Shown in pieces: positions 50,329 to 53,300 of a stretch of 64,000 nucleotides of DNA. The position numbers are program-made. Position 1 is the stretch's first letter; each line of letters starts with the position of its first letter. The stretch lies in NCBI RefSeq assembly GCF_054482595.1, contig NZ_CM137008.1; one strand, written 5' to 3'.

Positions 50329-53300
50329 GTTAGAGTCTTTCAGTCTGCGATGATGGGAAATCCCGGAGTGACTGAAAGACGTTTAAGTTATGAATGATCG
50401 CCTTTTTTTGCAAAATTGCTGTGCAGAAATACTAACCTTCGAGCAGGCGATCATTCATAAGCACTCTGCTTTTATTCCGATTAACTGTGGGTGGTTTGTT
50501 GGATAGAGTGCTTTCCTTTCTGTATATATCGTTTCGCCCGCTTTTGCGGGTTTTTCTTTTCAAATCCCTTTCATTTCTCAGTGTAAAACTACGCCATCCG
50601 TTATTTGCGGAGGTGAGGCTATGAAATCCATGGACAAAATTTCAACGGGCATTGCCTACGGCACCTCCGCAGGCAGTGCTGGCTACTGGTTTTTACAGTG
50701 GCTTGATCAGGTCAGTCCTTCACAGTGGGCTGCGATTGGTGTACTGGGGAGTCTGGTTCTGGGCTTCCTGACTTATCTGACAAATCTGTACTTCAAAATC
50801 AGAGAAGACAAGCGTAAGGCTGCACGGGGAGAGTAATTCAATGACTCAAAACTATGAACTGATTGTGAAAGGGATCCGCAATTTTGAGAATAAAGTTACG
50901 GTAACTTTAGCGTTACGGGACAAAAAACGCTTTGACGGCGAAATTTTTGACCTGGACATCTCGCTGGACCGTGTTGAAGGTGCCGCGCTGGAGTTTTATG
51001 AGGCAGCAGCCAGAAGGAGCATCAGACAGGTCTTCCTGGATGTTGCTGCCGGGTTATGTGAAGGGGATGAGCAGTCGCCGGAAAAGCGCCCCGTAATTTT
51101 AGAGGCGCAGAATGTGTGGATAACCTACAAAGGAAAGCTACCAGGAAGAATTACTGGTTCTCTGAAGACTCCTCCGGAATCACAACCTTAAGTCACTGAC
51201 CGGAACAGATAAACCTGTCCGTGGGCAGAAACCGATAAATCCTGATAAATATCCATGAACGCAAAAATCAGATACGGCCTGTCGGCTGCCGTTTTGGCAC
51301 TGATTGCCGTCGGTGCGCCCGCGCCTGATATTCTCGACCAGTTTCTGGATGAAAAAGAAGGTAACCACACAACGGCATACCGCGATGGTTCCGGCATCTG
51401 GACCATCTGTCGGGGTGCCACGATGGTGGATGGAAAACCCGTTTTTCCCGGTATGAAACTGTCGAAGGAAAAATGCGACCAGGTCAACGCCATTGAGCGT
51501 GATAAGGCGCTGGCATGGGTGGAGCGCAATATTAAAGTACCACTGACCGAACCACAAAAAGCGGGTATCGCGTCATTTTGTCCCTATAACATTGGCCCCG
51601 GTAAGTGTTTTCCGTCGACGTTTTATAAGCGGCTGAATGCCGGTGATCGTAAGGGCGCATGCGAGGCGATTCGCTGGTGGATAAAAGATGGTGGGCGCGA
51701 TTGCCGCATACGTTCAAATAACTGCTATGGACAGGTTATTCGTCGTGACCAGGAAAGCGCATTAGCCTGTTGGGGGATAGATCAGTGAGCAGAGTCGCCG
51801 CGATTATTTATGCTCTGGTTATCTGCATCATCGTCTGCCTGTCGTGGGCGGTCAATCATTACCGTGATAACGCCATCGCCTACAAAGAACAGCGTGATAA
51901 AAAAGTCAGTGAGCTGAAGCTGGCGATCGCCACCATCGCTGACATGCAGCAGCGTCAGCGTGATGTTGCTGCGCTCGATGCAAAGTACTCGAGAGAATTA
52001 GCCAATGCGCAAGCTGAAAATGAAACTCTGCGCGCTGATGTTGCCGCTGGCCGTAAGCGCCTGCGGGTCAATGCCAGTTGCTCCGCAGCCGTGCGTGAAG
52101 CCACCGGACCCACCAGCGTGGATAATGCAACCATCCCCCGACTGGCAGACACCGCTGAACGGGATTATTTCACCCTCAGAGACCGATTGATGACGATGCA
52201 GATGCAACTGGAAGGGGCGCAGGAATATATCCGCACTCAGTGCATTAAGTAGCCTTTTTATCGTGGTAAACATTTCGCAGGGTATGAGGTATTTATGCCA
52301 TCACGAATCCCACGCGCCTGCCGTAAGCGTGGATGTGCAGGTACAACCACAGACAGTTCTGGTTACTGCGATAAACATCGTGGCGAAGGATGGGTACAGC
52401 ATCAACGCGGACTGAGCCGCCACCAGCGTGGCTATGGCTCGAAATGGGATGCCATACGTGCGCGCATACTGAAGCGTGATAATCATCTGTGTCAGAACTG
52501 CCTGCGCAATGGGAGAGCCGTTGAAGCCAGAACTGTGGACCACATCATTCCGAAAGCTCATGGTGGCACGGATGCAGACAGTAACCTGCAGAGTCTGTGC
52601 TGGCCCTGTCATAAAGCAAAAACAGCGCGCGAACGCATCAATTGATAACAGTTCCCATCTGTAGGGGAGGGGCGGGTCAAATCTCTGCAACCCTGGCTGC
52701 TCAGTACCGCCGCCTGACCCTTCCTCACATCGCCGCAGGTTCGAAAACTTTTTTTTGGAAATGTGAACAAACGATTGATAGGTAAGACCGATTATGTCAG
52801 GACCTCCGAAAACCCCGCCACGCCTGCATTTGATTCGAGGCAACCCCTCAAAGCGCCCCGTTAAAGACCACAAAAAAACCGCTAAAAAGGATGAAAAAGG
52901 TCTTCCTAAAATTCCGCAGCATTTAGGGGCTCAGGGGAAGTACTGGTTCAGGCGAATGGCGGAAGAGCTGAATGCGGAAGGGATCATTTCTCAGCTTGAT
53001 GCGCGTGCGCTCGAGTTGCTGGTGGAAGCCTACACCGAATATCGGCATCACTGCGAAACACTCGATGTTGAGGGGTATACCTACCGCACGGAAACGCAGA
53101 GCGGTGATGTACTGATTAAGGCGCACCCCGCGGCGGCAATGAAAGCGGATGCCTGGAAGCGGATCCGGGCAATGCTTGCAGAGTTTGGTATGTCACCGGC
53201 AAGCCGGGCTAAAGTAAATATCGCCGGACCGGATGATGTTGATCCGCTGGCGGAGCTTTTAAAAGCGAGAGACTGATGGCAAAAGTGGCTGACGGGATCC

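Follow-up and report, generated by a model that had tools for sequence, protein, structure and literature searches.

The 116-aa reading frame between the pinholin and SAR endolysin genes of the 64,000-nucleotide stretch analysed here (contig NZ_CM137008.1, assembly GCF_054482595.1; hereafter the window) is a genuine and conserved gene, ydfR, and is best explained, with a probability of roughly 45%, as an optional, moron-like accessory passenger of the S21-type lysis cassette whose product would bind a host factor and act outside the lysis machinery. The ORF map of the window and the Pfam assignments of the flanking genes bear out the location given by an earlier reading made from the sequence alone (the sequence-only reading), and the cassette runs in the order S21-type pinholin, ydfR, SAR-type lysozyme, and Rz/Rz1. 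The ydfR frame, from ATG to TAA, begins 4 nt past the stop codon of the holin ORF and is preceded by the Shine-Dalgarno stretch GGGGAGAG, located 7 nt 5' of the ATG within the 3' end of the holin gene. The holin matches Pfam family PF04971 ('Bacteriophage P21 holin S', E=1.4e-35) and is named 'class II holin family protein' in RefSeq, while the lysozyme (R) resembles SAR endolysins in its Gly/Ala-rich hydrophobic N-terminal segment (AAVLALIAVGAPAP) and its catalytic motif (E35-x8-D-x5-T). For Rz, the start of the mechanical ORF (51770) differs from the RefSeq-equivalent start (51785). The hairpin upstream of the holin gene is a candidate late-operon terminator that would be read through under Q antitermination, the Q gene lying further upstream at 49114-49809. 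A consensus scan of positions 50621 to 51255 detected no promoter-like or terminator-like sites, which fits co-transcription of ydfR with the late lysis genes.

Features of the ydfR region, in positions of the window
Feature	Position	Strand	Basis
Terminator-like GC hairpin with T-run, between phage tRNA cluster and holin gene	50533..50560	+	Consensus scan only
S21-type class II holin (pinholin), 71 aa, dual start MKSM	50621..50836	+	PF04971; PHROG holin families; RefSeq
Shine-Dalgarno stretch GGGGAGAG inside holin 3' end	50826..50833	+	Sequence; alignment of window and 933W junctions
ydfR-family gene, 116 aa	50841..51191 (including stop codon)	+	ORF; PF07041; PHROG 406/2091; identical RefSeq gene
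Core DUF1327 domain, aa 1-74	50841..51062	+	AF2 models; alignment; 81% identity to K-12; dN/dS
C-terminal tail, aa 75-116 (EGDEQSPEKRPVILEAQNVWITYKGKLPGRITGSLKTPPESQP)	51063..51188	+	Alignments; AF2; pI
Junction, 19 bp; related prophages L025 and L026 carry ~292 bp instead	51181..51199	+	blastn break points; ORF maps
Spacer before endolysin gene, 63 nt	51192..51254	+	Sequence; scan; Rfam
SAR-type lysozyme (R), 177 aa	51255..51788	+	PF00959 (E=1.4e-24); N-terminal segment; catalytic motif
Rz i-spanin	51785..52252	+	PF03245 (E=1.3e-46); annotation of a near-identical relative
Rz1 o-spanin lipoprotein, nested in Rz in another frame	52005..52190	+	PF06085 (E=4.7e-18)

The sequence-only reading had suggested that the protein might belong to the DUF1327/YdfR group found at the same position in other prophages, and had proposed an HMM search as the check. 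That search matched residues 1-112 to Pfam DUF1327 (PF07041) with E=7.5e-43 and 145.1 bits against a gathering cut-off of 25 bits; together with matches to PHROG 406/2091, whose function is unknown, and a 100% identical RefSeq protein (WP_000193280.1, 'YdfR family protein'), this makes membership of the family nearly certain. The suggested position holds as well, since the Qin prophage of K-12 has the same order as the window (essQ-ydfR-rrrQ-rzpQ). The gene, its family name, and its position are thus already known from Pfam and RefSeq, and have been visible since the K-12 genome. A copy is present in 4301 of 5426 complete E. coli genomes (79%), with up to eight copies per genome; because ydfR lies between a holin and an endolysin in about four-fifths of E. 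coli genomes, the arrangement is an ordinary one. Identification as a known lysis regulator, the result that would have overturned the sequence-only reading, was not obtained from Pfam, PHROGs, NCBIfam (no matches of any kind), PADLOC, PDB sequences (best E 0.54), or fold searches. Likewise, no hydrophobic segment was found in the protein (the highest 19-residue Kyte-Doolittle mean is 0.69) and no signal-like N-terminus, so that the absence of a signal peptide claimed earlier is confirmed and extends to membrane helices.

The strength of the DUF1327 match, the 320 database clusters of homologues, and dN/dS values of 0.12-0.53 over the first 72 codons (in pairs with unsaturated dS), which indicate purifying selection, show that the ORF is not a chance reading frame. 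It is very improbable that the ORF is a remnant without function or has been annotated in error. Length and C-terminus do vary greatly among alleles (e.g., 103, 104, 114, 116, 176, and 183 aa), frame fusions with the holin are occasionally on record, and the ORF has been left unannotated in many Stx-phage records; however, the core is under selection, its motif is invariant in homologues down to ~30% identity, the gene has a good Shine-Dalgarno sequence, it is carried by active phages that can be induced and form plaques (e.g., vB_EcoS-689R5 and PhiR49_2), and the expressed K-12 protein builds up in soluble form (PMC13232886).

Two parts of the protein can be distinguished. The conserved core of ~72 residues is modelled by AF2 with a beta-beta-beta-alpha topology (antiparallel strands at residues 5-14, 18-27, and 34-43, followed by a long helix at 50-74), with pLDDT reaching ~90 in a deeper alignment of a homologue. 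Its invariant columns in the family alignment are R44, E46-G47-A48, L50-E51-F52-Y53-E54, and A57, of which Y53 and E54 persist even in relatives at ~30% identity. No resembling structure was found in a fold search of solved and viral predicted structures. The core is mildly acidic, and net acidic throughout the family, which may recall the many small phage proteins that have nucleic-acid enzymes as their targets. The tail is basic (pI 8.4), is modelled with low confidence, is absent from K-12 YdfR, and is replaced or extended in other alleles. In the pairs used for dN/dS, synonymous divergence is much lower in the tail than in the core, indicating a mosaic origin. It is at the junction where related prophages carry the longer segment that the final SQP residues and stop codon of the window gene arise, and the L025 version of that segment encodes a convergent 92-aa ORF.

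Comparison with phage 933W indicates that the gene is optional in the cassette. The adjacency of S and R that the sequence-only reading describes for phage 21 holds in 933W, whose S and R genes are homologous to those of the window (76% and 91.5% amino acid identity, respectively) and lie 4 nt apart with no DUF1327 gene between them. In the aligned junctions, the Shine-Dalgarno sequence inside the 3' end of S serves whichever gene comes next, ydfR in the window and R in 933W. The same polymorphism of presence and absence between homologous neighbours emerges from phage records matching the S-ydfR-R stretch, of which only 101 of 296 encode a DUF1327 protein. Nor is linkage to a cognate holin or endolysin constant, as shown by 933W and by more distant DUF1327 homologues located in tail operons, flanked by tail genes M and L (ES18 gp24 and locus L006) or I and J (L024 and L005), or after the tape measure gene (L027). 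Further homologues are found upstream of unrelated holins (L008 and L015) and after an Rz-like gene (L031). A flanking promoter and terminator of its own, one of the marks of a moron, was not found for ydfR in the scanned interval, in which the gene starts immediately behind S. On balance, ydfR is probably dispensable for lysis and does not encode a lysis effector.

The position of the gene nonetheless raises the alternative that YdfR is a cytoplasmic modulator of lysis timing, which would bind the charged cytoplasmic C-terminus of the pinholin or the unreleased SAR endolysin, or that the insertion itself reduces R translation by moving R away from the strong Shine-Dalgarno sequence at the end of S. 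This is quite unlikely. In all eight E. coli loci examined, ydfR occupies the slot between holin and endolysin directly behind an S21-type holin, so a lysis-linked role within the E. coli clade keeps some probability. By taking the Shine-Dalgarno sequence that serves R in 933W, ydfR leaves R of the window behind a spacer with no recognisable Shine-Dalgarno, promoter, or terminator (Rfam also returned no match inside ydfR or the spacer), and SAR endolysin systems of other phages have extra regulators, reportedly including that of phage Mu. However, known antiholins and releasins have a membrane segment and YdfR does not; searches in it for an antiholin-type membrane anchor, a SAR domain, or periplasmic targeting were negative. 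The holin of the window has the MKSM dual start by which S21 produces its own antiholin, 933W achieves lysis with S and R homologues in the absence of YdfR, the core domain is found in tail operons and beside unrelated holin families as well, and YdfR matches none of the lysis families of Pfam or PHROGs. A Keio ydfR mutant was scored as envelope-defective in a CPRG screen, according to the supplements of that study (PMC3879167), but the phenotype may reflect polarity, with the resistance cassette affecting the endolysin gene rrrQ further downstream.

The short forms of the family point to another alternative, in which a mobile moron cassette of two genes, encoding the DUF1327 core (the forward half, represented by YdfR) and a convergent small helical protein, serves in phage-phage or phage-host conflict (e.g., exclusion, anti-defence, or a toxin-antidote-like pair), and in which the reverse gene has been lost from the window allele while the forward one was kept or repurposed. 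All short forms examined (72-86 aa) had a convergent ORF of 70-100 aa within ~5-30 bp downstream, in 12 of 12 cases of one set and likewise in L004-L009, Evi, ES18, and Oslo; the scan of related loci covered the 72-aa DUF1327 subgroup. The pair is found at several genome positions, the partner is 58-65% identical between pairs while the accompanying DUF1327 cores have diverged far more, and a search from the partner side recovers a convergent DUF1327 gene in Cronobacter. The window also lacks the ~292 bp present in L025 and L026, which in L025 carry the reverse ORF. Against this, neither gene has a PADLOC match (at E<=1, for the window protein, the 176-aa allele, a short form, and three partner types), and an AF2 model of core and partner fused by a linker gave no confident docking (pTM 0.39, from a 31-row alignment with few paired rows and judged by pLDDT and pTM only, which makes the outcome uninformative, not negative), although both halves were folded, the partner as a four-helix bundle and the core with pLDDT up to ~90. 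The partner family also pairs with an unrelated protein of 93-95 aa in tail operons, so the convergent layout may be a general moron architecture instead of a functional pair. A relationship between DUF1327 and these 93-95-aa proteins was considered and rejected (hmmsearch E>0.03; hhalign probability 6%). The 116-aa allele, which has no partner, is conserved and very common, and overexpression of ydfR is not toxic (PMC13232886). A two-gene cassette is an unlikely account of the window gene, and defence or a toxin-antitoxin function was rejected as the primary explanation on the empty PADLOC search and the published lack of toxicity. Eight partner proteins, compared with 50500-51900 by tblastn, revealed no remnant of a partner gene there.

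The ydfR gene occupies the translation slot right behind the holin and makes use of the Shine-Dalgarno sequence contained in the last part of S. Under the preferred reading of an accessory passenger, it would be transcribed with the late operon after Q antitermination and, judging from its position, would yield a small cytoplasmic protein shortly before lysis. The beta-beta-beta-alpha core may then bind a host factor, for which the candidates are the N-terminal catalytic half of RNase E, RNA, or both, and a plausible outcome would be a local change in how RNA is processed or degraded towards the end of the lytic cycle. These candidates derive from published work on the K-12 protein (PMC13232886). 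A fragment comprising residues 1-72 of YdfR was recovered three times in a two-hybrid screen and binds the RNase E catalytic half in such assays, an interaction with Rne(1-597) is also seen for the full-length protein (with a short linker, the full-length fusion was positive with Rne(1-597) only), Strep-tagged YdfR co-elutes Rne(1-598)-FLAG, and DNase-resistant nucleic acid (RNA) co-purifies with the tagged protein (PMC13232886). The authors allow for a contaminating protein in the co-purification (PMC13232886), which was performed without nuclease treatment, so that RNA may bridge the two proteins. Very few transcripts changed on overexpression of K-12 ydfR (PMC13232886). The link to RNase E thus comes from one paper and from the K-12 protein, whose C-terminal part differs from that of the window. 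Binding of RNase E by the window protein is putative, by analogy with the K-12 segment that binds and to which it is 81% identical, and action through RNase E or RNA is a tentative proposal with somewhat less than even odds.

A joint reading combines these elements, with YdfR proteins as late modulators of the RNase E catalytic domain whose core travels in a mobile convergent cassette, the E. coli alleles having swapped the reverse gene for a tail. The family would then be restricted to temperate phages of Enterobacterales, its members would be Srd-like activators, inhibitors, or RNA adaptors, and the reverse gene would counteract or complement the ~72-residue core in the lysogen. This combination is doubtful. 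If the RNase E link is true, YdfR would be the first late protein of temperate phages known to have the RNase E catalytic half as its target. In any case, ydfR ranks among the most widespread of those E. coli prophage genes to which no function is assigned, and its position suggests that the protein is present at the moment of lysis, including that of Stx1a- and Stx2c-converting phages. The optional presence of the gene, its relatives in tail operons, the modular C-terminus, and the convergent partner of the short forms narrow the hypotheses and indicate which alleles should be compared.

Among characterised systems, the closest is K-12 YdfR itself (b1555, UniProt P76160), which shares the Pfam family and, over residues 1-74, including the reported RNase E-binding segment, the 81% identity given above, and which occupies the corresponding slot between essQ and rrrQ in the cryptic Qin prophage. 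It differs in length (103 versus 116 aa), in its C-terminal 29 residues, which are unrelated to the 42-residue tail of the window protein, and in the overlap of its stop codon with the rrrQ start, as opposed to the 63-nt spacer of the window; moreover, Qin is defective, whereas the window allele is found in inducible phages. Salmonella phage ES18 gp24/gp25 (NC_006949), flagged as a 'possible moron' by the depositors, provides an example outside a lysis cassette, gp24 being annotated as a DUF1327-domain protein, co-oriented with the late operon, and detected in a tblastn search using P0182, a distant member of the family (37% identity, E=2e-3). It is shorter (86 aa), lies among tail genes, and has a convergent 95-aa gene as its partner, whereas the window allele is long-tailed, partner-less, and part of the lysis cassette; gp23/gp24 of phage vB_SosS_Oslo, again a DUF1327 gene with a convergent gene, is a comparable pair. 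The S21-71 antiholin, T4 RI, and the endolysin regulators of Mu resemble YdfR in being encoded in or near lysis cassettes and made late, but these are membrane-anchored or periplasmic proteins, while YdfR lacks hydrophobic segments, shows no detectable homology to them, and has relatives beyond lysis cassettes. With respect to possible action, no sequence or fold homology was found between YdfR and the RNase E modulators T4 Srd and phiKZ Dip. T4 Srd, too, is a small cytoplasmic phage protein for which contact with the RNase E catalytic half has been reported; it is described as binding the N-terminal half and stimulating the decay of host mRNA (Qi et al. 2015, as cited in PMC13232886). Srd comes from an early gene of a virulent phage and clearly affects mRNA decay, whereas YdfR is encoded by a late gene of temperate phages and its overexpression altered few transcripts. 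Srd is the best precedent for how YdfR could act.

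The lambdoid prophage carrying the gene is integrated in E. coli beside tRNA-Ser and mtfA, and its local order is Q, four phage tRNA genes, S, ydfR, R, Rz/Rz1, HNH endonuclease, terminase, and HK97-like head genes. The sequence-only reading described a 116-aa ORF wedged between a pinholin and a SAR endolysin, and this description is accurate: the flanking genes match the P21 holin and lysozyme families, the holin has the dual start MKSM, and the lysozyme has a hydrophobic, Gly/Ala-rich N-terminus and the motif E-8-D-5-T, both as in SAR endolysins, with Rz and its embedded Rz1 on the 3' side. 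The ydfR ATG lies 4 nt past the S stop codon, and scanning for consensus sites from the holin gene to the lysozyme gene revealed nothing resembling a promoter or a terminator. That the protein belongs to the DUF1327/YdfR family, as the sequence-only reading suggested, is essentially certain, given the match to Pfam DUF1327 (PF07041; 145 bits, gathering score 25, E=7.5e-43) and the RefSeq name of the identical protein WP_000193280.1 ('YdfR family protein'). PHROGs 406 and 2091, neither with an assigned function, also match, and NCBIfam has no model for the protein. The K-12-type Qin prophage has the identical order (holin, ydfR, rrrQ, rzpQ), which together with the Pfam match confirms a YdfR-group gene in the holin-endolysin slot, here as in other prophages. 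Gene and position are already catalogued, and the family is named, very common, and of unknown function: by megablast, 4301 of 5426 complete E. coli genomes carry the gene (8343 places, up to eight per genome), and tblastn recovered it from 101 phage records, every one an Escherichia temperate phage, with Stx1a- and Stx2c-converting phages and newly induced phages among them. The family itself is small: profile searching across 1.84 billion representative proteins recovered only 89 members. It reaches as far as proteins of 72-76 aa with ~30% identity, in which the invariant Y-E of a 'YYE.EA' motif is retained.

Coordinates of features in the window and in related loci (L numbers)
Feature	Coordinates	Strand	Size	Remarks
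Four tRNA-Asn (GTT) genes	15648-35116			Chromosomal part upstream of prophage
Integrase gene	36225-37275	-		Beside tRNA-Ser
Integrase ORF	36250-37275		341 aa	
isrK/isrJ-like stretch	49825-49898			Just 3' of Q gene
Terminator-like hairpin	49896-49873	-		Overlaps isrK/isrJ-like stretch
Four phage-borne tRNA genes	50019-50328			Between Q and holin gene
Terminator-like hairpin with T-run	50533-50560			~60 nt upstream of holin start
Holin gene S	50621-50836		71 aa	PF04971 'Bacteriophage P21 holin S', E=1.4e-35
Shine-Dalgarno stretch GGGGAGAG	50826-50833			Within S 3' end
ydfR-family ORF	50841-51191	+	116 codons	ATG start
Core	50841-51062			Residues 1-74
Tail stretch compared	51063-51176			
Junction	51181-51199		19 bp	
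Spacer, leader of R	51192-51254		63 nt	
Lysozyme gene R	51255-51788		177 aa	PF00959
HNH endonuclease gene	52295-52645			Directly upstream of P27-family small terminase and large terminase genes
Extra segment, L025	738-1029		about 292 bp	
Extra segment, L026	5341-5632		about 292 bp	
Short-form pair, L011	2501-3040			Phage Evi
Short-form pair, L028	3462-4014			ES18 gp24/gp25
93-95-aa family pair, L033	3001-3602			
93-95-aa family pair, L034	2941-3538			
93-95-aa family pair, L036	3001-3597			

Several features of the surroundings were also recorded. The phage-borne tRNAs have anticodon CAT (Met per ARAGORN versus tRNA-Ile in the RefSeq annotation of relatives), Lys-TTT, Thr-TGT, and Gly-TCC. The match to the Salmonella prophage sRNA families isrK and isrJ is weak (22.7 bits where the gathering score is 50, and 24.5 bits where it is 37), and the hairpin before the holin gene is a candidate late terminator overridden by Q. 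In the relative Ecol_881 (99.5% identical), the annotation marks the integrase gene as frameshifted, and the window integrase may be truncated too, since its ORF stops 25 nt before the annotated pseudogene end.

Nei-Gojobori dN/dS is 0.12-0.53 over the first 72 codons (eight alleles, pairs with unsaturated dS), and it is very unlikely that the ORF is non-functional. No hydrophobic segment was found in the window protein, which bears out the claimed absence of a signal peptide and leaves it with no membrane or export signal. The protein combines a mildly acidic core with a basic tail; AlphaFold2 predicts three antiparallel strands (5-14, 18-27, 34-43) followed by a single long helix (50-74) at pLDDT about 70-80, with the same topology at about 90 in a homologue with a deeper alignment, and low confidence for residues 75-116. 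Residues 1-74 are 81% identical to K-12 YdfR, whereas the C-termini are unrelated. Alleles in general have the core in common and diverge past residue ~74, ending in the short K-12 type, the 'PEKRPIILEAQNVWITYKGKLPGRITGSLKTPP' tail of the window, the same tail plus a predicted helical extension of 60-100 residues (alleles of 176, 183, and 211 aa), or further types. Synonymous divergence in the same allele pairs is 0.36-0.72 in the core versus 0.07-0.22 in the tail, so the two parts have separate histories, which indicates a mosaic gene put together from two modules by recombination. At a cut-off of E<=0.001, Foldseek returned no match among viral predicted structures or in the PDB, and neither a PDB sequence search nor PADLOC gave a match. 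In seven predicted database proteins (P0015, P0032, P0039, P0081, P0092, P0109, and P0118), a holin domain (PF04971) and a DUF1327 domain share one reading frame; P0015, the one sequence inspected, has a truncated holin C-terminus. Small indels or sequencing errors spanning the 4-nt gap probably account for these proteins, rather than true fusions.

Known antiholins and endolysin regulators carry membrane or export signals, unlike the window protein. In phage 933W, S (76% aa identity) and R (91.5%) of the same families lie 4 nt apart without a DUF1327 gene, and in the phage collection the S-ydfR-R stretch is matched by 296 records, whereas only 101 records code for a DUF1327 protein. More distant homologues have other neighbours. 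They sit between tail genes M and L in L006 and in the Salmonella phages ES18 and Oslo, and between I and J of the tail genes in L005 and L024; in L027 the homologue follows the tape measure gene, in L008 and L015 it precedes holins of unrelated families, and in L031 (Cronobacter) it comes after an Rz-like gene. The depositors of the ES18 record flagged gp24 and gp25 as 'possible moron'. Because S/R pairs exist without ydfR, the protein lacks such signals, and homologues sit elsewhere, it is probably not part of the lysis machinery and is likely not a lysis effector. A cytoplasmic modulator of lysis timing or of R translation remains a contender, and the same three observations weigh against it; in all eight E. 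coli loci examined, however, the gene directly follows an S21-type holin, so a lysis-linked role in the E. coli clade stands as a caveat. The Shine-Dalgarno sequence embedded in S serves ydfR in the window and R in 933W, where it is strong; since the 63-nt leader of the window endolysin gene has no recognisable Shine-Dalgarno sequence, the ydfR insertion may lower or uncouple R translation. On the best-supported reading, YdfR is an accessory protein of the cytoplasm, dispensable and co-expressed late.

Another reading that remains is that YdfR is the partner-less half of a conflict-related two-gene cassette. Every short form examined (72-86 aa, ending right past the core; L011, L028, L029, L004-L009, L013-L015, L017-L024, L027, and L031) has a convergent ORF of 70-100 aa within about 5-30 bp. 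The partners are of at least three unrelated sequence types, and the pair turns up both in lysis and in tail regions, in phages of E. coli, Salmonella, and Cronobacter and on several metagenomic contigs. A reverse ORF also accompanies some long forms (L025, PhiR5_1), whereas the window allele has none. An indel polymorphism distinguishes the loci: the 19-bp junction of the window, which supplies the last residues of the protein, corresponds to about 292 bp in L025 and L026, containing a reverse-strand 92-aa ORF in L025, and no partner-gene remnant was found in the window. The phrog_25324-type partner is also convergent with an unrelated 93-95-aa family (hhalign probability against DUF1327, 6%) in tail operons of Serratia and Escherichia prophages, and a linker-fused AlphaFold2 model of core and partner gave pTM 0.39 and no confident docking. 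The pairing may be functional, or merely a common moron layout.

On the accessory-protein reading, the conserved core of YdfR would bind a host factor, and the only candidate with experimental support is the catalytic half of RNase E and/or RNA, a mechanism that is a lead and not a result. A full-text search returned almost nothing on DUF1327 or YdfR beyond one informative paper (Göpel et al., RNA Biology 2026; PMC13232886), in which YdfR(1-72) was recovered three times in a two-hybrid screen, full-length YdfR interacted with RNase E(1-597), and RNase E(1-598)-FLAG co-eluted with Strep-YdfR. The co-purification was done without nuclease treatment and DNase-resistant nucleic acid co-purified with YdfR; overexpressing ydfR had no toxic effect and altered few transcripts. 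According to the paper, ydfR shares a transcript with three genes of unknown function; by homology these are the Qin lysis genes. The Keio ydfR mutant is among the CPRG envelope screen hits in the supplements of PMC3879167, a result suspected to come from polarity of the resistance cassette on the endolysin gene that follows. The comparisons made here somewhat sharpen a long-standing question about a widespread prophage gene. A precedent cited in PMC13232886 is T4 Srd, like YdfR a phage protein reported to bind the N-terminal half of RNase E.
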